Below, in pieces: positions 9,522 to 57,874 of a stretch of 64,000 nt of DNA. Position 1 is the first letter of the stretch, and every line of letters begins with the position of its first letter. The stretch covers positions 4,201 to 68,200 of the forward strand of contig JAMDAA010000022.1 in assembly GCA_023484045.1 (NCBI GenBank). The letters are read 5' to 3'. The position numbers were made by a program, and so were the translations under genes. The notes beneath the pieces are model-generated. The model was not told the origin of the DNA. It saw only the letters and a list, made by a program, of their open reading frames with translations, and did no database searches. The stretch comes from Patescibacteria group bacterium. GTDB lineage: Bacteria > Patescibacteriota > Microgenomatia > Levybacterales > UBA12049.

Positions 9522-10205
9522 TTACAGCTTATTGATTTCCGTACTTAATTCCTGATTCCTTACAGCCATTTGAATATCATCTCTGGCAAATTTAACAATC
9601 CCCTCTTTATCGATCACAACGTAACTGTGTCCGGGAAACTGCCCTTTATGCATCGAGGAAGGAAGTGTTAAAACTCCATACTTTTGCGAAACTTGCCTAT
9701 TACCATCAAAAAGCACATTAGCAGAAGCAAGTTCCGGCATTTTATCGATGGCTTGCTTCCACTCATTTTTAGGATCAGCTGTAATATTTAATATCACCGC
9801 TTTACTCCCCAGTTCTGTGTCTTTTCCAAAAGCTGCAATCTGGTTCCAGCAAGCAGGATAACACATTAATCCTTCGTTAAAGAAAAGAATTACGTTTTTG
9901 CCTTTTAACTCACTTAGGATAATCTTTTTTCCATCATAGTTTTCTAGAGTAAAATCAGGAGCACTTTTACCGACCAGGCCATTAAAAATGGTTGCGTCAA
10001 CAGGAGTAGATCCTCCGTGGTGACTTGCCATGGAGTCAGTTTGTGATCCTTGGACCGACTGACCAGTCTCTTTATCTGTAGAAACCTGGTCTCCCTTGCT
10101 ATTTATGTTTACCTCGATATTAAAATTGCTAACAACTAATATCAAAGCTATAACTATCCCGGTACCTAAAATTGCGATAAGTCCAGTTTTATTCAAAATT
10201 ATCAC
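9522..10205 (-). CDS. secreted thioredoxin-fold protein with CxxxC motif (TlpA/Sco-like thiol:disulfide oxidoreductase)
   Basis: 227 aa with an N-terminal TM anchor. Motif ILFFNEGLMCYPACW. Paralog of 11210-11842. Overlaps the downstream CcdA-like gene. Confidence 0.5.
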   Translation of the reverse strand: MIILNKTGLIAILGTGIVIALILVVSNFNIEVNINSKGDQVSTDKETGQSVQGSQTDSMASHHGGSTPVDATIFNGLVGKSAPDFTLENYDGKKIILSELKGKNVILFFNEGLMCYPACWNQIAAFGKDTELGSKAVILNITADPKNEWKQAIDKMPELASANVLFDGNRQVSQKYGVLTLPSSMHKGQFPGHSYVVIDKEGIVKFARDDIQMAVRNQELSTEINKL

Positions 10206-11210: not shown

Positions 11211-11842
11211 TAAAATTTGTCAATTTCTGTCAACAACTGCTGATTTCTTATTGCCATTTGGGGATCGTCTAAAACATACCGCACAATTCCCCTTTTATCA
11301 AGAACTACATAAGTGTGTCCGGGAAGTTGTCCTTTATGCATTGAAGAAGGAAGAGAAAGCATGTTATAAGAAGCGGAAACTTTTTTATCAGTGTCAAAAA
11401 GAACAGCGGCGGAAGCGAGTTCCGGCATTTTTTCGATCGCCCCTTTCCAGTCATTTTTGGAGTCATTTACAATAGTTAATACTACTGTCTCTTTGCTTGG
11501 GAATTGGTTATCCTTTCCAAAAGCAGCGATCTGATCCCAACAAGCCGGATAACACATTAATCCTTCGCTAAAAAAGAGGATCACATTTTTACCTTTAAGA
11601 CTGCTTAAGGTAATCTTTTTCCCATCATAGCTTTCTAAAGTAAAATCAGGCGCAGGTTTACCAACTAAACTATTAAGAACCGCTGGAGCAGTAGACTGAT
11701 TGGCAGAGGAGCCTTGCCCGCCTAGCTGCGAGGCCGGTCCACTATTACCAGTTAGTAAAAAGGCTACGGCAACAACAATTACAGCTAAAACTACAAACCC
11801 TACTGTAATAATTAATCCTTCTTTATTTCTCATATAATTCAA
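11210..11842 (-). CDS. secreted thioredoxin-fold protein with CxxxC motif, paralog of 9522-10205
   Basis: 210 aa. Same VILFFSEGLMCYPACWDQIAAFGKD core. N-terminal TM anchor. Confidence 0.5.
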   Translation of the reverse strand: MNYMRNKEGLIITVGFVVLAVIVVAVAFLLTGNSGPASQLGGQGSSANQSTAPAVLNSLVGKPAPDFTLESYDGKKITLSSLKGKNVILFFSEGLMCYPACWDQIAAFGKDNQFPSKETVVLTIVNDSKNDWKGAIEKMPELASAAVLFDTDKKVSASYNMLSLPSSMHKGQLPGHTYVVLDKRGIVRYVLDDPQMAIRNQQLLTEIDKF

Positions 11843-46078: not shown

Positions 46079-46208
46079 CTTCGATCCTTGTGGCCAAGAT
46101 GAATCACCAAATAAGTTTACCCTGAGCGAAGCCGAAGGGCTCCCTAACAGTAAGAGCCTGTCCTGAGCGAACGAAGTGAGTCGAAGGATACTTTCACCAC
46201 AAGGATCA
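46079..46208. repeat. intergenic palindromic repeat with CCTGAGCGAAGCCGAAGG motifs
   Basis: Inverted repeat GATCCTTGTGG...CCACAAGGATC flanks two copies of the CTGAGCGAA.CGAAG motif. The same motif occurs at 11158-11205 and 57851-57868. Confidence 0.45.
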
Positions 46209-47480: not shown

Positions 47481-47500
47481 CTGGTGAGCCGGACAGGATT
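47481..47500 (-). other. duplicated 3'-end fragment of tRNA-Lys(TTT), T-loop to CCA
   Basis: ctggtgagccggacaggatt is identical to 56109-56128, the 3' end of the intact tRNA-Lys. Confidence 0.7.
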
Positions 47501-47556: not shown

Positions 47557-47808
47557 CTACATTTCTAGATTCAAAAATCTTTTCTTCATAAATGCGATGC
47601 CTGATCCTGTTTTAAGGTATCGTTCAAATGCCAATGCTTGCCTTTTTGTTTTAAACGCACAATGCCATTCAAGTTGATAATTCAAGTTTGATTTAGTAGA
47701 AAGAACTTTACCTGTCGAGTGTTTTTTTAGACGATTTTTTAAATCAGGGGTATATCCAACATAGTATCTGTTAGTGATGTTATTTCTTAAAATGTAAGTA
47801 TAATACAT
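47557..47808 (-). CDS. small GIY-YIG nuclease-family protein (copy 1)
   Basis: 83 aa. YYTYILRNNITNRYYVGYTPDLKNRLKKH carries the GIY and YIG elements, plus a downstream conserved Arg/Glu. Confidence 0.75.
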   Translation of the reverse strand: MYYTYILRNNITNRYYVGYTPDLKNRLKKHSTGKVLSTKSNLNYQLEWHCAFKTKRQALAFERYLKTGSGIAFMKKRFLNLEM

Positions 47809-47846: not shown

Positions 47847-47986
47847 GTGAACGTTTACGAAAAAATTCGAACCTATTTTAAAAATTAATTACGTCTTGCG
47901 TCAGCTCCTCGCTCGTCCGGCTTCGCCGTCCTCGCTTCGTCGCTATTTCGCTTTCGGCGCGGCGCCCCCACCCGCCGCGCCTCCGC
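47847..47986. repeat. inverted repeat A (about 140 bp), partner A' at 54285-54423
   Basis: The reverse complement matches 54285-54423 with at least one mismatch. The GC-rich body contains the T-loop-like aataggttcgaat. Confidence 0.8.
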
Positions 47987-48720
47987 TCATTTTTTGCGCG
48001 CGCGATTTTCGGGAACTTCGTTCCCCTATAATACCACAAACTGAATCGGCCAAAATGGTGGAAATTGGCCGATTCCAAGTACAAAAACTTCCGGTTCCAC
48101 CACTTTTTTGGTTCTCGCCAAGCCAAACGAAAGAACGAACTGAAGATTTTTCCGGCGGTTCCCGCCGGTTTTTTTGTTTCGCCCCTTCCAAACACTTTAC
48201 TATTGTAGAAGAGTACAAGAGTAGAAGATTAAAGTAGAGGTTATCAAATTTCTATCAACCCACCCACCCGACTGAAATTGTTGGCGGCGACCCCATTCAT
48301 CGCGCGCTGGGCGCCCTAGGGGGCGCCTGCGACAACGGTTTTACTTTTCTAAGAGTTCCTACAGCGCGTCCCTCGCCCCGCTGCGGCGGGGCTTGTCTTT
48401 AGTTTTGACTTTTAAGGCTCGCGCGTTCTGGGGTGTCCGCTTTTCGCCCCCGCCTTCTTTATTTGACCCCTTCCTGCTATTCAGGGCTCGGGTTCACGCT
48501 TAAGGAAATAAACTTTAGAACCCTCGCTCCTGATCCCAATGGCTCGCCCCGCGTTTTCTTTCCCTTAAAGATTATCAAGCGGGGCTCGCGTTAGTCGGGA
48601 ACGCTCGTTAAAGTAAGTGGTAACTCGAAGGGTTTTCTGTCGCGTTCCCTCCTTTTTAGCTGGGTGCTATTGAGGGGGCGGGGGCGGCGGAGCCGCCAAC
48701 AACAAAATGAAAAAAAAAGA
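47987..48720 (+). ncRNA. GC-rich ORF-poor region with many stable hairpins; candidate large structured ncRNA (strand uncertain)
   Basis: About 60% GC against a ~35% background. Only overlapping short ORFs on both strands. Hairpins GGGAACuucgGTTCCC, GAATCGGCCAA..TTGGCCGATTC, GGCGCCCuagGGGGCGCC, GCCCCGCugcgGCGGGGC, GGCGGagCCGCC, and a terminator-like CCGGCGGttcCCGCCGG followed by T7. Confidence 0.4.
48152..48176 (+). terminator. intrinsic-terminator-like hairpin inside the GC-rich region
   Basis: CCGGCGG ttc CCGCCGG followed by TTTTTTTG. Confidence 0.45.
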
Positions 48721-48753
48721 TTTTCTTGTCCCATTTTGATACACTGTTAATAT

Positions 48754-49911
48754 ATGGCTGATGATATTCCCCAAGATCAGACACAAACAACGGAGACAAC
48801 AAGCCCAACAGTTCCACCAACTGACCAACCGCCAGTGGAAACTTCACCAGTGCAACCAACATCAGAACAATCATCAACAAATACAGTTTCTTCAGAAACT
48901 CTAAATATTCCTAATCCTGAACCAGTTGCTCCCGCAACTCCCGAACCACAAACACAACCCGCCGAAGCTAAAACAGAAACTCCTGCACAAATAGAAACAC
49001 AACCGCCTGTTTCTCCTCCTGTTTTTGATATTCCGGCATTACATTTTCCGTTCTCCGGTAATTTTCCAGTGACTTTTTCTTGTGGTCAGCAATCAGATAA
49101 CGAAGAAATCAAAAAGAAATTTCAGGAGTGGGGAATTGTTGGCCACAATGGTTTAGATTTTGGATTAACTTCTGGAACCGAAGTTTATCCATGTGATTCT
49201 GGAAAAGTTGTCCAGTCAGGAGATAACGGCGATTTTGGAACATCAATCACTATTCAACATTCGTGGGGACAATCAATTTACGGACATCTTCAAGAAACTA
49301 GAGTCAAAGAAGGCGACGAAATTCAAGTCAACAACGTAATTGGTCTTTCCGGTTCTTCCGGTGCCGCATTTGGTGATCATCTGCATTTTGCCATCAAACC
49401 AAACAATCCTGATTTAAATAATGGTTATCTTGGTTTTATCGACCCTGCGCCTTATTTATCTTTACCATCTCAAAAAGAAGAAACAACCGAAACACCACCA
49501 ATTCAAACCCCACCCGTTGAAGAACAAATGCCGCTGGAAGAAATTAAACCACCGGAACCAGTTATTCATCAAGAAGAGCCGACAATTAACATTGAGCCGG
49601 AAAAACCAGCAGAACAATCCCAAATTCCTCAACCGAGCAATGAAGAAATTCAAAAACAAGTGGATGAAAAACTAAAAACAGAGTTAGATGCCAGAAGATT
49701 AAAAGCTAATCAGGCCAGACAAACAAAGAGAGAAGAAAATTTAATGAAGATTGAAAAACTAATCGAGGAGAAAAAACTAATTAACAATGACGATGTACGA
49801 GAACTTCTTCATGTTTCCCAATCTACAGCCACTAATTACTTAGAGGATTTAGTAAAACGAGGAACAATTAAACTCAATGGCAAGGGTAAAGCAACGATTT
49901 ACAGTTATTAA
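48754..49911 (+). CDS. M23 (LytM-type) peptidase with Pro/Thr-rich N-terminal region and C-terminal winged-helix-like domain
   Basis: HNGLDFGLTSGTEVY...GHLQE...GDHLHFAIKP M23 motifs. N-terminal PT-rich low complexity. C-terminal VRELLHVSQSTATNYLEDLVKRGTI is HTH-like. Confidence 0.75.
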   Translation: MADDIPQDQTQTTETTSPTVPPTDQPPVETSPVQPTSEQSSTNTVSSETLNIPNPEPVAPATPEPQTQPAEAKTETPAQIETQPPVSPPVFDIPALHFPFSGNFPVTFSCGQQSDNEEIKKKFQEWGIVGHNGLDFGLTSGTEVYPCDSGKVVQSGDNGDFGTSITIQHSWGQSIYGHLQETRVKEGDEIQVNNVIGLSGSSGAAFGDHLHFAIKPNNPDLNNGYLGFIDPAPYLSLPSQKEETTETPPIQTPPVEEQMPLEEIKPPEPVIHQEEPTINIEPEKPAEQSQIPQPSNEEIQKQVDEKLKTELDARRLKANQARQTKREENLMKIEKLIEEKKLINNDDVRELLHVSQSTATNYLEDLVKRGTIKLNGKGKATIYSY

Positions 49912-49963
49912 CCCAACATTCAACAACAACAAATATACTCAAGTAATATTTCTATCCAATTAT

Positions 49964-50314
49964 TTATTTTGTTGCTGTGGGTGCCGGATTTGTTGCGGTT
50001 GTTGGTTCAGAGATCGTTTTAGCGACTACTCCGACATTAAACATTTGAGGAAATCTTAATCTGTAAAGGCTCTCCAGAAAATCGGTTCCGGCATAACCTG
50101 CAAGTAAAGATATTCGCCAATCACCATCAGCAATTAATCCTGAAACCACGCCAACAATACCGGAAACCAACATTGTTACCCCAAAATATTGCCAGTGAAT
50201 CTTAAACTCATCAGGGTTTTGAGTTTGTTTTAGTATTCCTACTAATCCGCGAACTAATCCTCCGGCCAGTCCAGTTACTAAATGATAAATTTGAAATTCA
50301 AGTTGTAATTGCAT
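49964..50314 (-). CDS. small two-TM membrane protein (holin-like)
   Basis: 116 aa. Two TM helices and a charged C-terminal tail. Inside the element, near the M23 peptidase. Confidence 0.35.
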   Translation of the reverse strand: MQLQLEFQIYHLVTGLAGGLVRGLVGILKQTQNPDEFKIHWQYFGVTMLVSGIVGVVSGLIADGDWRISLLAGYAGTDFLESLYRLRFPQMFNVGVVAKTISEPTTATNPAPTATK

Positions 50315-50628
50315 TAAGTTTTAGTCACCTCCTTAGATTTTTGTGCTTTTGTACTATTCTGCAAGAGTGCAAACCCACCTTTGCCAAACTTTATTACTTG
50401 ACCAATTTTTGAAATAGTTGAAGTGCTAACTGGAATTTCAGCGGCAATTTCTTCGTATGTTTTGCCTTCCAAAATTAGCTTTGCTATTTTTAGCCTTTGG
50501 GCAAAATCAAGTGTTTTCTCCGGTGAAAACAAGTCTTCGATAAAGATAGTTAAATTCTTTTTGGTTTTGATTTTGAAAAAAGAATTAATAACCAATTGAG
50601 TATCTTTGTTTAGATTTATTTTGTCCAT
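50314..50628 (-). CDS. TrpR-like (YerC/YecD family) DNA-binding protein
   Basis: 104 aa. RLKIAKLILEGKTYEEIAAEIPVSTSTISKIGQVIKFG matches the Trp-repressor-like HTH family. Confidence 0.6.
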   Translation of the reverse strand: MDKINLNKDTQLVINSFFKIKTKKNLTIFIEDLFSPEKTLDFAQRLKIAKLILEGKTYEEIAAEIPVSTSTISKIGQVIKFGKGGFALLQNSTKAQKSKEVTKT

Positions 50629-50629
50629 A

Positions 50630-53542
50630 TTAAACCTTCTTTTTCGCTTTAATTAATAAAACAACTGTAATAAGAATGATAAACGCCATTATTCCGATGA
50701 CTGATATTACTTGTGGATTAAGAAAAGCGTTTGTTTGCTTAACTTGAATGTTTAAATCAAATTCTTTGACATCTCCAGTTAGGTTTACTGTTTGTTCTCC
50801 TTGATAGTTAGCATAAGCAATGTTTATTTTATGTTGACCAGATTCCACATTAGAAAACTGAGCAATTCCGTTTTTATCGGTTGTGGTTTCTTGAACTTTT
50901 GAATGAATAGTAACTTTTGCACCTGGAACAGGTCTGTTTGTCGTATCCACAACCTTAATTTTGACTGTATAGCCATTTTGTTTAACAGCTTGTTTTTCTT
51001 CTTCTGTTTGAGCTGGAACAGTTTTTTGTTCGGTGATCTTAGTTTCTAAATTTCCATTGAATAGACTCTGTAGTGGAGCTGGCAAGTTGTTGTTTATTGA
51101 AAGATAAAATACAGGTTGAGTATATGTGTTTCCTGCACTATCCTTTAGTGCAATTGTACTTTGGTAATGCCCGTCAATTAACGGGAATGGAACAGTAATA
51201 TAAAATCTGGATGACTTTTTGTCGTTTGAACTGTCTTGAATGTTGGACAAAGAATAATCTTGGGTTAAATAGTCAGCATAAGTTTTATCGTCTTTTTGTC
51301 TTTTTAATGTCAGCGTAAGTGTTTGTGGTCCAGACGAAACTTTATCAAAAGTATCGGTCGAATTATTACTATTTGTCTTTATTGAACCCTGATAACTGTC
51401 GACTGCTAATCCTGAGAATGAAGGTGTTCGATTTAAAATACTTATGTTGTAAATTCCTCCGGAATTCACTATCGATACATTTGCAACGGCTAACTCTGAA
51501 ATAGCAGGTGAAGTTTTGTCAATATAAAAATCGGCAGATTGAGAAGTTGAATTAGATTGAGCATCATAAGTAGTAACTGTCCAAGTATGTTTTCCCTCAG
51601 TCAGTTCGGTATTGTTTAAATCTTTAAAGTAAACATGAATTTCGTCGTTTGAACTATCACTATCATTTTCGTTTATGAACTCGATTTTTACAGAGTTGTC
51701 ATCTTTCCATACATAATCGGCTGATCCATTTCCTGAAGTTGGAATACCAGAAGTTGAAAGGCTACGGTTCTTTCCTGAATCTAACGATACAGAATATGAG
51801 GATAAACCACTTCCAGAATCAGAAGACTTTTTGAAAACTAAAGTGGGTTTTGTATCTTCTTTGCTAAAACCCGTTGGAGAAGATAGGGATCCAGCCGTGG
51901 GTGCAGTTGTATCAACTCTAAAATCTGGACTGCCTCCCATGGAAACCCACGATCCGTTACCTGCTGAATTATTAATCCTTGCCTGCCAATGATAGGAAGT
52001 TCCGCTTGTTAACCCGGTAACTGTTACGCTTCCGGTTACGGCTGTTCCCGTAAAAGCGACGGCACTCCCCGTATTTGTGACTGAATTAGTGAAAGCGGTT
52101 CCGTTTGGCTGTATCTCTATTTGAGGAGTAAGGGAATCAGAAGAATTACTTGATGACATGTTAAACTTTAAAATAATTGTTCCTTCGTTTGTATATGCTC
52201 CTGAGGAAATTGCTGTTGTTCCATCTGTTTTATATTGAGCCAATGCGGAAGGTGCCGAGGGCAATATAAACTCATAGACTCCATCATCAGGGGCAGAACC
52301 CTGTGGAACTATTGTTCCGGCAAAATCTGAAGTAAGACTTAAATCCGTACCAGCATTAATTGCCGGGCTAGAAGATGTTAAATGAAAATCTGAACTACTT
52401 CTATTCAAAAATGAAGGTTCTACAAAAGTGCTATGACTATCCCATCCTGTATCTGTTTTCCAGGTTGCGAAATCAACAAATGCGTTATTATATCTAAATT
52501 GACCCTGTGCTGAACCATCTGTGTAGTAAATATTGTAATCAACATCGTTATCGCTCGCTGTATTATTGAGGTCGTCGCTAGCCCTAGTATTATACGCAAA
52601 GACATTATTTCGGATTACTACTCCACTAACAGTGGTTATTGTACTTCCTGGGCCAAATACAAACCCGTGCATATTACCATAACTGGTATTGTTATAAATA
52701 TATGAAACCCCATTCGCTCTTAAATGTTCTTCTACCCATACTCCATTCCAACCCGCTCCATAAGTTATGTTGTACCGAAAAATAAAACCGTTAGAGTTTA
52801 CGTCAAAATGAGCATTGCTCTTATAACCATTGTAAAAAGTGTTCTTTTCAACTAAGGCGTTGATTGTATCTCCCGTATATAAGTTATCACTCCAATCAAG
52901 AAAACCTTGGTTATCATTTAGAGTACTTCCTGTAATTATTGGAGCTGACAAATGGTTAAGCCAAACTCCGATTTGACCAATACTTGTATGATCTAGACCG
53001 TTGTTATAAACATGACTGCCATCTAAGCGAAAACCAGTTGATCGATAACTTGAGCTTTGACCTTCGATTCTAAGTCCAAAAACACCGTTATGATCAATAT
53101 CTGACGAATAAATTTTAAAGTTACTTATTGGGGTAAAATTAGTTGCGTAACTCATCCAAACTCCAGTGTAGTAGTTATTAGTGATCTTCATATTCTGAAG
53201 AGTTATATTTGAAGGTGTGTTCCAGGTTGGTTTTAATCCAAAACCTCTGCCGTACTGTCCGCCTGCTCCGTCAATTTGAAGTCCGTTAAAGGTTATATTA
53301 GATCTGTCATCACAAGATACAACATCATATCTGGCTCCAATTTCCATAGTGTGTGTTGAAGGATTTGCCCCGTCAGAAGCCCAGTAATACACAATATGAG
53401 CAGTGCTGTCATAGTAAAACATTTTTGCGCCTGTTATTGCCGCCAAACTTCCCACAGGTGTAGCCATTACGTTGTCTTCCAGAAGAAGATAAATACCAAT
53501 AGATGCCGTGTAGCTTGCTTTATAAATATTGCCACTTTGCAA
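50630..53542 (-). CDS. about 1000-aa surface protein: right-handed beta-helix (pectate-lyase-like) repeats, Ig/fibronectin-like and carboxypeptidase-regulatory-like domains, C-terminal TM anchor
   Basis: 970-aa ORF from a TTG. N-, S- and G-rich beta-helix repeats (NNVFAYN.., NNTSYGN.., VIRNNVF). C-terminal VISVIGIMAFIILITVVLLIKAKKKV. The true N-terminus with the signal peptide lies upstream in other frames (see 53467-53938). Confidence 0.7.
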   Translation of the reverse strand: MQSGNIYKASYTASIGIYLLLEDNVMATPVGSLAAITGAKMFYYDSTAHIVYYWASDGANPSTHTMEIGARYDVVSCDDRSNITFNGLQIDGAGGQYGRGFGLKPTWNTPSNITLQNMKITNNYYTGVWMSYATNFTPISNFKIYSSDIDHNGVFGLRIEGQSSSYRSTGFRLDGSHVYNNGLDHTSIGQIGVWLNHLSAPIITGSTLNDNQGFLDWSDNLYTGDTINALVEKNTFYNGYKSNAHFDVNSNGFIFRYNITYGAGWNGVWVEEHLRANGVSYIYNNTSYGNMHGFVFGPGSTITTVSGVVIRNNVFAYNTRASDDLNNTASDNDVDYNIYYTDGSAQGQFRYNNAFVDFATWKTDTGWDSHSTFVEPSFLNRSSSDFHLTSSSPAINAGTDLSLTSDFAGTIVPQGSAPDDGVYEFILPSAPSALAQYKTDGTTAISSGAYTNEGTIILKFNMSSSNSSDSLTPQIEIQPNGTAFTNSVTNTGSAVAFTGTAVTGSVTVTGLTSGTSYHWQARINNSAGNGSWVSMGGSPDFRVDTTAPTAGSLSSPTGFSKEDTKPTLVFKKSSDSGSGLSSYSVSLDSGKNRSLSTSGIPTSGNGSADYVWKDDNSVKIEFINENDSDSSNDEIHVYFKDLNNTELTEGKHTWTVTTYDAQSNSTSQSADFYIDKTSPAISELAVANVSIVNSGGIYNISILNRTPSFSGLAVDSYQGSIKTNSNNSTDTFDKVSSGPQTLTLTLKRQKDDKTYADYLTQDYSLSNIQDSSNDKKSSRFYITVPFPLIDGHYQSTIALKDSAGNTYTQPVFYLSINNNLPAPLQSLFNGNLETKITEQKTVPAQTEEEKQAVKQNGYTVKIKVVDTTNRPVPGAKVTIHSKVQETTTDKNGIAQFSNVESGQHKINIAYANYQGEQTVNLTGDVKEFDLNIQVKQTNAFLNPQVISVIGIMAFIILITVVLLIKAKKKV

Positions 53543-53938
53543 ACTCCAACCAGTAACAAGATCGGTCCCTGTGATACGGGTTTGGAAGCTGATGCACCGT
53601 AAGAGTTGTAGGTAATGGGGTTACCTGTGGAACCACCAGTATTTACATACCAAGTTTCTCTCCAAACATCACCTTTCTTTAGTGATACTTGATCTCCAGC
53701 AACAAAACCAAACCCAGCCAGTTTAGCCATCGTTTTAAATGGTCCTGTGCTTCCAGTTGTGTGAGTCTGTTCAAGCCCGTCATAAGAATCATACCCATCA
53801 GTTTGACTAACGTAATAAGTTGCAGCAAAAGCTTTAGTATTTACAACGAAGAATAATGAAACGAATACTAATAGAGAACAAAAAGTTTTTAGGAGAAAAT
53901 TTAGCCGCGGCCTTTTACTCTCTCTCTCTCTCTCTCAT
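53467..53938 (-). other. out-of-frame 5' part of the surface-protein gene: ATG, (GA)9, signal peptide, first beta-helix turns
   Basis: ATG at 53938-53936 is followed by (AG)9 and then an in-frame TAA. The +1 frame encodes SKRPRLNFLLKTFCSLLVFVSLFFVVNTKAFAATYYVSQTDG... continuing into the 87-aa ORF at 53467-53730. A second shift of -1 near 53560-53600 joins this to the 970-aa frame. Confidence 0.55.
53918..53935. repeat. (TC/GA)9 dinucleotide tract at codons 2-7 of the surface-protein gene
   Basis: ctctctctctctctctct on the plus strand. With 9 units the ATG frame stops immediately. With 10 units the ATG would be in frame with the signal peptide. Confidence 0.9.
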
Positions 53939-54120
53939 TTTTGATCCCGAAGTTGGGAGCAATTTGTTTAAACATAACATATTAGATGTGTGAAATTATA
54001 TTTCCCCTACTATTACTATTAAATATAGAAACAATTTCTAGCAAATGCAATAGATAGTTAAGCTTAAAACGTGCCTATTTTTGCTATTGTTTTCTTTTTC
54101 TGTTTTTTGTATATTAAAAA

Positions 54121-54209
54121 TGGACTCAGTTTTGACGGATTGTGTTTTTTAATGGCGCAATCGGACAGATAGGACACAATCCTAACTGAGTCCACCGGTT
54201 GCGCCATTT
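54121..54209. repeat. interleaved inverted repeats, potentially an H-type pseudoknot
   Basis: X TGGACTCAGTT (54121-31) pairs with AACTGAGTCCA (54185-95). Z GGATTGTG (54137-44) pairs with CACAATCC (54175-82). Y TAATGGCGCAA (54150-60) pairs with TTGCGCCATTA (54199-209). The order is X Z Y Z' X' Y'. Confidence 0.5.
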
Positions 54210-54284
54210 AAGTATTAAAAACTATAGGGAAAAAGTTCTTTAAAATTTTTGCGTTTTTTCTTTAGGATTCGAGCTGACAGTTTT

Positions 54285-54423
54285 CGGAGGCGCGGCGGGT
54301 GGAGGCGCCGCGCCGAAAGCGAAATAGCGACGAAGCGAGGACGGCGAAGCCGGACGAGCGAGGAGCTGACGCAAGACGTAATTAATTTTTAAAATAGGTT
54401 CGAATTTTTTCGTAAACGTTCAC
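54285..54423. repeat. inverted repeat A', partner of 47847-47986
   Basis: Reverse complement of A. Contiguous with B'. Confidence 0.8.
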
Positions 54424-54526
54424 CAGTAAAGAAATTGAAGCAGAAGTGGGGGCAGCGCGAGCCGCGCCCCCAATCGCGGCGAGCGCTGCAAAGGGATATT
54501 TTAACGCTGGCCGGAGTTGCCGGTTA
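54421..54526. repeat. inverted repeat B', perfect partner of 56010-56116
   Basis: tcaccagtaaagaaattgaagcagaagtgggggcagcgcgagccgcgcccccaatcgcggcgagcgctgcaaagggatattttaacgctggccggagttgccggtt equals the reverse complement of 56010-56116. Confidence 0.85.
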
Positions 54527-54614
54527 GAATGAAAGGACAGAAGAAAAAACGCAAAAATTAACAAGGTAGAATTTTAAAGAACTTTTTAAGAGTACAAAAG
54601 TACTAAACTAAAGT

Positions 54615-56009
54615 ATGAATAAATACATAGCATATTGCCGAAAATCAACCGACGAGAAAGACAAACAGGTGTTATCTATTGAAGCGCAAATTGCAGAACT
54701 CAAAGAATTTGCTAAACGTGATCATTTAGAAGTTGTTGAATTTATTACCGAAGCCAAAACAGCTAAAATGCCAGGGCGTGAGCAATTTGCGCTAGTCTTA
54801 AAGAAAATTGAAAAAGGAGAAGCCCAAGGCATTATAAGTTGGCACCCAGACCGTTTAGCCAGAAATTCAATAGATGGAGGTAAAGTTATCTATTTATTGG
54901 ATACCGGAAAGTTAATAGATTTGAAATTTCCGTCTTTTTGGTTTGAAAATACTCCCCAAGGAAAATTTATGTTATCCATTGCCTTCGGCCAGTCAAAATA
55001 TTATGTGGATAATTTATCGGAAAATGTAAAGCGTGGTAATCGCCAAAAACTTCGTCGTGGTGAGTGGCCTTCAAAAGCACCATACGGATATATTAATAAT
55101 CCTAAAACCAGAGCCGTTGATGTTGACCCCGAATTATCCAAAGTTGTTAAAAAAGCTTTTCAGCTTTTTTCCGAAGGCAATAAGTCGTTTACGGAAATTT
55201 CAAACTTTATGTTTAAGTTTGGGATGAAGCGGGAAAGTTGTGGGAAACCGATTAAAGTTGATCAAATAAAACGGATGTTATCAAACAAATTTTATGTAGG
55301 AATTTTAAAGTATGCCGATGAATATTATGAAGCTTCCCATAAATGTTTCATCTCCAAACAACTTTTTAATGATGTCCAAAAGCAGGTGGAAAAAATCTTG
55401 CGTCCTAGGCAACACGGCCACGATTTTGCTTTTTCCGGTTTAGCCACTTGTGGAGAGTGCGGCGCCGCAATCACGGCAGAACAACACGTAAAACATTACA
55501 AAAATGGTAAATCCCAAACTTTTATCTATTACCGCTGTACTAAAAAGTTAAAGCCCTGTACACAAAAGTATTTACCAGAAGGTGATTTAGAAGAGCAATT
55601 AAAAAAAGTGGTGGGTGATTGCGGCTTGCACCAGGATTGGGAACCCTATTTTGAAAAATGGATGGCCGAAGATGAGAAAAAAGATCAAGCTAATTCAGAC
55701 ACAGAATTAAGAAGGCTTGGCGAGAACCAAAAGGAAATTGAAACAAAACTTAATCGCTTACTTAATGGTTATTTAGATCAAGTGGTGGAACCGGAAGTTT
55801 ACAAACAAAAGAAAAATGAATTATTTGACGAAAAACTAAAACTTACCGAGCAAATTGCCAAAGTTTCAAAGATTGGTTCGTCTTGGCTCGAACCTATGAG
55901 AGAATTCGTAATTAGCGCCTTGCAGGCGCAAAAAATCGCGCGCGTAAAAAATGAGTGCCATGATTTGGCGATCATGGCAAAAACTGTCGGCTCGAACTAT
56001 TCTTTATTT
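54615..56009 (+). CDS. large serine recombinase (resolvase/invertase catalytic domain plus recombinase and zinc-ribbon-like extension)
   Basis: N-terminus YIAYCRKSTDEKDKQVLSIEAQ with the catalytic Ser in the Y.R.S context. About 465 aa to the start of repeat B. The frame stays open through B and antisense tRNA-Lys to 56276. C-terminal Cys pairs CGECG..CTKK. Confidence 0.8.
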
Positions 56010-56116
56010 AACCGGCAACTCCGGCCAGCGTTAAAATATCCCTTTGCAGCGCTCGCCGCGATTGGGGGCGCGGCTCGCGCTGCCCCCACTTCTGCTTCAA
56101 TTTCTTTACTGGTGAG
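56010..56116. repeat. inverted repeat B (107 bp) abutting and overlapping the tRNA-Lys CCA end
   Basis: Perfect reverse complement of 54421-54526. Contains the strong hairpin GGGGGCGCGgctCGCGCtgCCCCC. Ends in CTGGTGA, shared with the tRNA 3' terminus. Confidence 0.85.
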
Positions 56117-56184
56117 CCGGACAGGATTCGAACCTGTGACCAATTGCTTAAAAGGCAACTGCTCTACCGCTGAGCTACCGGCCC
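56110..56184 (-). tRNA. tRNA-Lys (anticodon TTT) with encoded CCA
   Basis: Acceptor GGGCCGG/CCGGCTC, anticodon stem GTTGC/GCAAT, loop CTTTTAA, T-loop TTCGAAT, 3' ACCA. Confidence 0.85.
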
Positions 56185-56272
56185 GCCCACCACGCAAGCC
56201 GAGCATTGCGAGGCGTTGCGGGCAGGCCCGCTCGCCCCATCTTCACACTCAACTTTTGCAGCTTTTTAAATT

Positions 56273-56524
56273 CTAGTTTTCAAAAATTTTCTTCCAAATC
56301 CAGTTTTAAAATATTTTTCTCTTTTAATCGCCTTTTCTTTATCTAAGCACGCTTCGTAATATATTAGTCTTAAAGGTAATCTGCCTTTTGTTGCTAAGCT
56401 TTTTCTTTTTCTGTGAACTTCTAACCTTTTCTTTAAATCTTCTGTATATCCAGTATAAAGCTTACCGTCTTTTTCACTTTTAAGAACATATGTATAAACA
56501 TTACCTTTTCTCGTGATTATATCA
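56273..56524 (-). pseudogene. GIY-YIG nuclease-family gene (copy 3) lacking a canonical start codon
   Basis: Minus-strand frame encodes ITRKGNVYTYVLKSEKDGKLYTGYTEDLKKRLEVHRK...REKYFKTGFGRKFL with an in-frame TAA immediately upstream and no ATG, GTG or TTG. Not in the ORF track. Lies 88 bp upstream of tRNA-Lys on the same strand. Confidence 0.5.
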
Positions 56525-57838: not shown

Positions 57839-57874
57839 AGAGGATGAGAAGTTTACTCTGAGCGAAGCCGAAGA

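Follow-up and report, generated by a model that had tools for sequence, protein, structure and literature searches.

The DNA considered here is a 64,000-nt stretch of contig JAMDAA010000022.1 (positions 4,201 to 68,200; assembly GCA_023484045.1) from a Patescibacteria group bacterium, hereafter the window, to whose numbering all positions refer. Within it, the gene for a large serine recombinase (LSR) is associated with two nested pairs of long inverted repeats, A/A′ and B′/B. We propose, and consider highly probable, that bp 47847 to 56115 form an 8.3-kb integrative element which its LSR inserted at the 3′ end of a tRNA-Lys(UUU) gene, and which carries a second, intact, inverted copy of its attachment site, attP. 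The nested inverted repeats are the A arm of the left junction, attL, and the B arm of the right junction, attR, each pairing with one half of the internal attP.

An earlier sequence-only reading of this DNA had described both inverted pairs. They are real on realignment and lie within 1 nt of where that reading had placed them. The mismatch count that it had called for in A/A′ was made by a repeat search of the 46–58 kb region and base-by-base alignment: A and A′ match over 139 nt with one mismatch (C at 47967, T in the complement of its partner in A′), and B′ and B are perfect over 107 nt, a match that blastn lengthens to 116 nt at 98%. A′ and B′ had been called contiguous; they do adjoin, but they actually overlap by 4 nt, TCAC, at 54420–54423. 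B had been said to flank the recombinase gene, whereas it sits within the 3′ end of that gene and ends inside tRNA-Lys(UUU). Self-comparison of the whole window gave no further long inverted repeats besides A/A′ and B′/B, and the initial 23-nt stretch of A has exactly two occurrences in the window, versus zero in shuffles. A weaker third mirror pair, C and C′, is found on both sides of A′B′.

Attachment sites at the 3′ end of tRNA-Lys(UUU)

Written in one orientation, three junctions share the tetranucleotide GTGA: X-GTGA-A at 47847, where X is the native tRNA trailer; B-GTGA-A, which is the reverse complement of bp 54285 to 54526; and B-GTGA-tRNA at 56115. Alignment of these triads in the window and in about 35 relatives shows them to have the makeup expected of attL, attP, and attR, respectively, with the predicted crossover within GTGA. 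The minimal overlap of A′ and B′ in this set is 4 nt, and the hybrid attL and attR sites share only this short crossover, which at attR falls within bp 56112 to 56115. The tRNA gene is intact after insertion at its 3′ end; the native trailer X is without a CCA, and the CCA comes from the B arm. Arm A starts with ACGTTTACGAAAAAATTCGAACC, which resembles a tRNA T-arm, and its T-arm mimic, ATTCGAACC, lies 4 nt farther from the crossover than the equivalent motif in the tRNA. The published model of LSR–DNA complexes leads one to expect an offset of this kind between attP-type and attB-type half-sites. Arm A ends in a G+C-rich hairpin (about 47956–47981), and arm B contains a covarying hairpin (about 56046–56083) with compensatory changes. 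In four relatives (L017, L040, L092, and L165), the loop of the B-arm hairpin has an extra insert of about 25 nt, CCCTACGTTCCTCAGGGTAAAGG, in both arm copies, which lengthens the LSR tail.

The only long ORF (open reading frame) here, bp 54615 to 56276, passes through B and then, antisense, through tRNA-Lys(UUU). Its product has the domain set of an LSR, namely a resolvase catalytic domain (PF00239, E = 2e-20, residues 5–151), a recombinase domain (PF07508, E = 5e-10), and a zinc ribbon (PF13408, E = 3e-11). The closest solved structure is that of SPbeta SprA (E = 8e-15), whose YLRRSR aligns with the YCRKST motif of the window LSR. A look-up for the exact protein found no record; the homolog search gave 7872 protein matches, and the homologs in groundwater and sediment metagenomes, including those of CPR (candidate phyla radiation) bacteria, number in the thousands. 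About a dozen of them (P0001, P0007, P0023, P0051, P0061, etc.) are about 900 aa long, roughly double length, with 42–68% identity to the query, and these may be tandem LSRs that have become fused, or gene calls that run through neighboring genes in arrays.

The predicted crossover lies within the LSR reading frame. Since attP spans the native 3′ end of the LSR gene, integration would replace the last codons by antisense tRNA. The hypothetical product of a B-A junction is 512 aa long and ends with ..LLVNVYEKIRTYFKN before the stop codon, and a homolog that is 88% identical (P0004) is also 512 aa long and ends with ..LLVNAYEQIRTFFKN. The native tail recovered from A thus matches, at the sequence level, those of homologs that appear to be in the free form. 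Among the 120 best homologs, about 69 end in antisense-tRNA tails, recognizable by GFEP, the antisense of the tRNA T-loop, and about 6–8 carry native tails. Inside the LSR coding region, on the tRNA strand, a hairpin followed by a T-run is predicted; it would stop read-through from the tRNA gene.

The same layout is seen well beyond the window. We collected 166 loci with 138 unique LSR genes, whose products are from 94% down to 51% identical to the window LSR; taxonomy was taken from 80 species-representative loci, almost all titled as Microgenomates-group CPR bacteria. Layouts were counted by self-comparison and tRNA scanning in the 77 unique loci with enough flank and, for A/A′, in the 34 loci with at least 9 kb upstream. 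The B′/B pair, typically of 103 nt, is present in 70 of the 77, the LSR gene reads into a downstream minus-strand tRNA gene in 67, and an A/A′ pair with A′ abutting B′ is found in 27 of the 34. The nested layout as such occurs in over 100 loci, including the closed genome CP011210.1 (L009). Across the family 26 tRNA isoacceptors are targeted, and the arm sequence tracks the class of the target tRNA, e.g., TGGTCG|AGATTTACGAAAAAGTTAGAACC for tRNA-Pro, with the A arm co-varying with class. The arrangement of attachment sites and repeats is therewith shown to be a trait of an LSR element family in Microgenomates. The records of many species-representative metagenome-assembled genomes that carry the element (those of L006, L008, L010, L018, L019, and others) are titled "uncultured Gammaproteobacteria", "Pseudomonadales", or "Saccharibacteria"; their genes and tRNA clusters are Microgenomates-like, and such titles are probably placeholder mislabels.

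These counts also bear on whether the repeats could be a collapsed duplication or another artefact of assembly, a caveat raised by the sequence-only reading. Inverted repeats do often break or mis-join short-read assemblies, and many of the related contigs end inside the arms. The same architecture, with arms that are specific to and co-vary with each element, was nevertheless recovered in over 100 independent assemblies, made in different projects with different assemblers, the closed genome among them. Because the nested layout recurs in this way, an artefact is excluded for practical purposes. Contigs that end inside repeats were likewise considered as evidence of inversion and set aside as uninformative, since contigs would be expected to break at repeats in any case.

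Beyond the present element, 346 nt to the left of attL and past a small GIY-YIG gene (region 47557–47808), there is a 20-nt copy of the tRNA-Lys 3′ end. It includes the CCA-G that is typical of B-arm ends and looks like what was left by a previous integration into that tRNA gene. GIY-YIG genes adjoin tRNA genes also in L001 (15682–15942, tRNA-Asp) and L004 (8868–9122, tRNA-Glu).

Table 1. Features of the proposed element and its surroundings, in window coordinates.
Feature	Position	Strand	Description and basis
20-nt copy of tRNA-Lys 3′ end	47481..47500	-	CTGGTGAGCCGGACAGGATT; direct repeat with 56109-56128
Predicted attL crossover region, GTGA	47847..47850	+	Native tRNA trailer X (..GCGAAAGATA) to the left, arm A to the right; attL/attP/attR alignment, window and about 35 relatives
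Arm A (P′ arm of putative attP)	47847..47985	+	Last 12 native LSR codons at 47850-47885, stop at 47886-47888
Degenerate remnant of an LSR 3′ end	47986..48200	-	..LGENQK.., VVEPEV, and KIARAKNE in three frames; abuts distal end of A; inverted matches and translations
Cargo region	48754..53900	both	Pfam scan and frame analysis
M23 peptidase with winged helix-turn-helix (HTH) tail	48754-49911	+	Pfam
116-aa ORF	49964-50314	-	
TrpR-like HTH protein	50314-50628	-	Pfam
Giant beta-helix/Ig-like secreted protein	50630-53542	-	N-terminal part to about 53880 in a different frame
Structured RNA motif	54108..54215	+	Roughly 105 nt, three covarying helices; reads towards A′B′ and LSR; covariance model R1, 140 bits
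Block C	54230..54262	+	Mirror copy of C′; two blastn plus/minus matches, 18 nt and 19 nt long, both 100%
Arm A′ (inverted copy of A)	54285..54423	+	Repeat search and alignment
Arm B′	54420..54526	+	Inverted copy of the 36 LSR codons that precede the crossover; with A′, forms the putative intact inverted attP, A′-TCAC-B′
Block C′ (LSR upstream region)	54541..54587	+	
LSR gene as integrated	54615..56276	+	553 aa; native part to 56114, then antisense tRNA-Lys read-through, tail ..SRTGFEPVTNCLKG..
Terminator-like hairpin and T-run	55956..55979	- (tRNA strand)	Inside LSR coding region
Arm B (P arm of putative attP)	56009..56115	+	Within LSR 3′ end; last 36 codons before the crossover; supplies tRNA CCA end
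tRNA-Lys(UUU), attB half of putative attR	56110..56184	-	ARAGORN; Rfam tRNA, 75.5 bits

The second attP and the leader of the LSR gene

The order of events that we envisage is a simple one. The LSR would recombine the attP of the element, B-GTGA-A, with the tRNA end, X-GTGA-tRNA, giving attL at 47847 and attR at 56115. Excision by attL × attR recombination would release a circle in which an LSR arc of 1.5 kb and a variable cargo arc are set apart by two inverted 242-bp copies of attP. Integration would normally proceed through the copy at the LSR 3′ end, leaving the promoter, the leader, the spare attP, and the LSR gene together as a whole unit. What, then, would be the role of the internal copy?

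The arms, to begin with, are kept nearly identical. The median identity of the B arms is 0.981 within an element versus 0.598 between elements, and for the A arms the values are 0.986 and 0.611. In 93 of 100 elements, the closest match of B′ is the element's own B. Relatives whose LSRs are 92% identical have B arms that are only 77–83% identical to B of the window, each matching its own B′. The sequence-only reading had attributed the near-identity of the repeats to ongoing recombination or gene conversion, and the contrast between about 98% identity within and about 60% between elements bears this out. The presumed att arms are shown by these comparisons to evolve in concert, and arm-to-arm gene conversion would hold the internal attP identical to the working one.

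The position of the internal copy is of interest as well. On the minus strand, B′ encodes LSR residues 466–500 (tblastn), and about 90 nt separate the intact inverted attP from the start codon of the LSR gene downstream. On the other side, at a distance of about 70 nt from A′, is an upstream structured RNA motif, with a −10-like TGTATATT before it. Searches with a covariance model derived from three sequences locate the motif at 79 places in the 166 loci (e.g., L093:9553-9662 and L085:9519-9627), nearly always on the LSR strand and 300–450 nt upstream of the LSR start. Paired cells make up 93% of those in its helices, versus 70% in shuffles, and double changes are seen in 23–25 of 32 pairs; the observed values were reached in none of 500 shuffles. 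Sliding the helix partners abolishes the covariation signal, all three helices covary, including one that is absent from the covariance model, and G-U pairs are confined to the LSR strand. Helix 3 is interleaved with helix 1/2, and folds of single sequences contain either the one or the other at the same energy; therefore, the motif would be a pseudoknot or a two-state switch. A search of the 46–58 kb region against Rfam (Rfam 15) gave only the two tRNAs and a sub-threshold chance match, with neither the motif nor the arms matched. As judged from these alignments, the predicted RNA motif is new and is, besides the LSR and the att arms, the sole conserved component of the elements.

Given that the motif lies upstream of A′B′, that no terminator is predicted between it and the LSR gene, and that in one relative (L003) it stands directly before the LSR gene, with no A′B′ in between, the internal attP appears to lie inside the LSR leader, behind a conserved promoter and a structured RNA. 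A promoter-like sequence, TTAACG-18-TAGAAT, is also found at 54501–54530, straddling the end of B′. Since the res site of Tn3 serves as an operator, we suggest by analogy that the internal attP is most likely a putative LSR-binding operator, or a roadblock, in the leader of the LSR's own gene. It would also be a competent spare, able to support occasional inversion of an arc, alternative integration, and recombination with other tRNA genes or with a resident attR, events that would give rise to the composite arrays of relatives. In four cases (L027/L130, L038/L164, L085, and L102), two or three LSR genes or remnants are arrayed at one tRNA locus, in tandem or nested accumulation. An antisense mini-ORF across A′B′ (54382–54564, minus strand) was considered as a regulatory LSR-tail peptide and rejected: an in-frame upstream ATG is present in 22 of 126 loci, and 44 have no start codon.

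It is tempting to go one step further and regard the spare attP and the leader RNA as a control and exchange module, in which recombination by the LSR between the spare site and the element's own attR or attL, or another element's resident attR, inverts or swaps arcs. We hold this to be possible but unlikely. If true, such a module would connect the LSR gene anew with the promoter of the tRNA gene and with the native tail of the LSR, giving directionality without a directionality factor and a natural form of cargo cassette exchange.

Several observations weigh against the proposed element with its spare attP. The left attB half, X, shows no conservation, which is unusual for LSRs, and the T-arm-like motif of the B arm is at tRNA-like rather than A-like spacing, so that the half-site geometry differs from that of a textbook attP. 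A few relatives deviate: the internal copy is absent in L003 and lies upstream of the RNA motif at the first LSR gene (LSR1) of L085, and therefore the internal copy is not absolutely required. No free circular contig was found, terminal direct repeats being present in 0 of 166 loci. Comparison of the cargo arcs across relatives found no protein common to them and hence no conserved candidate for a recombination directionality factor. Finally, the one contig that might represent an excised form, L166, described below, is compatible with a free circle and with integration via the internal copy alike.

Orientation of the two arcs and the unusual loci

The sequence-only reading had likened the locus to the switches of the Hin/Gin/Cin type. 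In such a scheme the LSR, or RecA acting on the 107–139-nt repeats, would frequently flip the LSR arc through B′/B, the cargo arc through A/A′, or both, as an ON/OFF device for the LSR or for a surface-protein cargo. After a flip of the LSR arc, the LSR would have its native tail, and its gene would follow immediately behind the tRNA gene and be read in the same direction; a flip of the cargo arc would cut off the promoter and leader RNA from the LSR gene. The geometry permits both inversions with the junction types unchanged, the concerted evolution of the arms implies that they interact physically, and the few native tails among the best homologs point the same way. The orientation found in relatives is nevertheless nearly invariant. 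The LSR gene reads into the tRNA gene in about 120 of the 166 loci, and conserved segments at the cargo ends give 1597 matches in the same orientation versus about 35 in the opposite one. These counts show that the inferred polarity of both arcs is nearly fixed. Free flipping should commonly give both orientations, and this is not what is seen; therefore, a frequently flipping switch is unsupported, and so is amplification in the 2-micron manner. In addition, the enzyme is an LSR of more than 500 aa, and to our knowledge canonical LSRs do not recombine attP with attL, attR, or another attP.

Alternative orientations, which the sequence-only reading had proposed to seek among relatives, do occur as rare cases that are ambiguous in short-read assemblies. 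The cargo arc is flipped in L114 and L131, and L167 has the layout expected after a flip of the LSR arc. These loci would favor a switch; L114 and L167, however, can each be obtained from a single mis-join inside a repeat, in low-coverage short-read assemblies. All in all, we find a programmed switch unlikely, and an integrative element with nearly fixed arcs the better description of the locus.

Other unusual loci suggest that the spare site may take part in recombination from time to time. In the composite locus L085, two attP-type junctions enclose a second LSR arc, and a single cargo arc has a different LSR arc on each side; the composite would be explained if an incoming circle had recombined with a resident attR. 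In L068, an LSR arc lies between two inverted tRNA-Glu genes, as would be expected if an internal attP had recombined with a second tRNA gene. Both loci can also be read as traces of natural cassette exchange, in which the two inverted attP copies bracket the cargo arc, so that double site-specific recombination could trade arcs between elements or take them up from DNA flanked by tRNA genes. Engineered recombinase-mediated cassette exchange would then have an equivalent in nature, and the hypervariable, single-gene cargos would be accounted for. Such exchange would agree with cargo arcs that are almost all unrelated while the arms and arc ends are conserved, and with A arms that are common to elements with different B arms. 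On the other hand, no exchange event was seen directly, attP × attP or attP × attL/attR recombination would be needed, reactions not known for LSRs, and homologous recombination in the conserved arms could yield the same patterns. We therefore regard exchange of this kind as decidedly doubtful.

A further contig, L166, was assembled by MEGAHIT at k127 and reads B′(part)-C′-LSR(native tail)-B-o-A-LSR remnant-cargo-RNA motif-C, stopping where A′ should start. As in the window, an LSR remnant follows A. As the lengths of B (103 nt) and of A (about 100 nt) are both below k, the contig requires real B-o-A-remnant molecules. Its order fits the circular permutation that would be expected of an excised element or of integration through the internal copy.

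L166 is also relevant to another suggestion of the sequence-only reading, a circle like the yeast 2-micron plasmid, that is, a free circular replicon whose copy number is amplified by recombination between inverted repeats. The two-arc, two-repeat topology that it invoked is indeed expected of the excised form, and L166 fits it; the replicon and the amplification are another matter. No replication or partition genes are among the Pfam matches to the cargo proteins of the window, no protein is conserved across cargo arcs, and the enzyme is a serine, not a tyrosine, recombinase. Integration into the chromosome at tRNA genes in more than 100 loci, with no circular contigs found, makes such a plasmid very improbable, and the tRNA-integrated element again accounts better for the data.

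Cargo, related systems, and significance

The cargo of the window element comprises the four genes listed in Table 1. In the giant secreted protein, the signal peptide and the first roughly 130 residues are out of frame with the 970-aa ORF (bp 50630–53542), and homologs are 1296–1362 aa long; the protein thus seems to be disrupted, be it as a pseudogene, through an error in sequencing, or by slipped-strand variation. Just upstream of the seemingly disrupted part (region 53380–53940), a (CT)9 run is present at 53919–53937. The cargo module is also found at other tRNA genes in L001, L004, L008, L009, and L091. For this shared cargo, at Lys-CUU, Lys-UUU, Val-GAC, Glu-CUC, and Glu-UUC, the best-aligned segments are up to 91–97% identical, with roughly one to two thirds of the arc aligned. 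The occurrence of the same cargo at several tRNA genes with such high identity therefore indicates recent movement of the element. Other cargo arcs, of 0.7–8.7 kb, are mutually unrelated and often consist of a single gene. Small ones, of about 1.4 kb, were considered as a second intact LSR, an idea that was rejected: they gave no second LSR matches, and their proteins are unrelated. A scan of IMG/VR gave no match to the element, and there is therefore no sign of a viral nature.

Two further repeats were noted in the window. A direct repeat of about 380 nt (9595–9971 and 11283–11662, 75% identical) is unrelated to the element. A 25-nt direct repeat, AAGTTTAC(C/T)CTGAGCGAAGCCGAAG, 96% identical, lies outside both ends of the tRNA/element region (46113–46137 and 57849–57873); a similar CTGAGCGAA..GAAGG unit appears again at about 46165, and this may be a short dispersed repeat.

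How does this family compare with known systems? Like the integrases of phiC31, Bxb1, A118, SPbeta (SprA), and Tn4451 (TnpX), the LSR combines resolvase, recombinase, and zinc-ribbon domains, with sequence similarity to SprA; its attP and attB sites are non-identical with few common crossover bases, its attP half-sites are quasi-palindromic, and a motif is shifted by 4 nt between the P-type arm (A) and the attB arm (tRNA). Unlike them, it targets the extreme 3′ end of many tRNA genes, has its attP inside the LSR frame, keeps a second inverted attP, and shows an unconserved left attB half and no conserved recombination directionality factor. With the SSV1-type archaeal integrases and the integration-dependent immunity systems of mycobacteriophages it has in common that integration cuts one of the element's own genes, so that the integrated and free forms differ in a C-terminus, here a native 12-aa tail versus an antisense-tRNA tail. 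In those systems the recombinases are of the tyrosine type and a spare inverted attP is absent. In the present elements, the exchange is confined to the last 12 codons, and the exchanged tail may be functionally irrelevant.

The yeast 2-micron plasmid (FLP/FRT, 599-bp inverted repeats) resembles the predicted excised circle in having two arcs and two identical inverted repeats that carry a recombination site. The present elements differ in their serine recombinase, in having no recognized replicon functions, in their chromosomal, tRNA-integrated resting state, and in that there is no evidence for equimolar isomers. As in Hin/Gin/Cin, the gene of a serine recombinase has the enzyme's own site on both sides, in inverted orientation; those enzymes, however, are of about 190 aa with a C-terminal HTH, and use an enhancer, Fis, and 26-bp sites, compared with an LSR of 512 aa (native) or 553 aa (integrated), arms of 107–139 nt that are att halves, and a nearly fixed orientation. 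In Tn3/gamma-delta, res, between tnpA and tnpR, likewise places the site of a serine recombinase in the control region of its own gene, but a single site does both jobs there, while here it is duplicated and the leader copy would normally not be used for integration. Finally, tycheposons and other tRNA-targeting cargo islands are similarly small, site-specific elements at tRNA genes with variable "flexible" cargo and a capacity to form arrays. Of 937 elements of the tycheposon type, 910 use tyrosine recombinases, and a duplicated inverted attP is not described for them (bioRxiv 10.1101/2020.12.28.424599).

Neither this LSR family nor a natural element with a pair of inverted attP sites is described in the literature that we searched. 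LSRs are leading tools for the insertion of large DNA, and their directionality and site rules are actively researched; the element should thus be of interest to specialists in LSRs and in mobile elements. Unusual in this family are the targeting of the last bases of many tRNA genes, a left attB half that is apparently sequence-free, an attP within the frame of the enzyme, a conserved and concertedly evolving spare attP in the leader, and a new covarying RNA motif. If the spare site acts in regulation, inversion, or cassette exchange, it would represent a natural design principle that is undescribed in the literature searched. The mobile elements of CPR bacteria are poorly known, and this LSR family appears to be a main vehicle of single-gene cargo, such as transporters, nucleases, and surface proteins, in their streamlined genomes.

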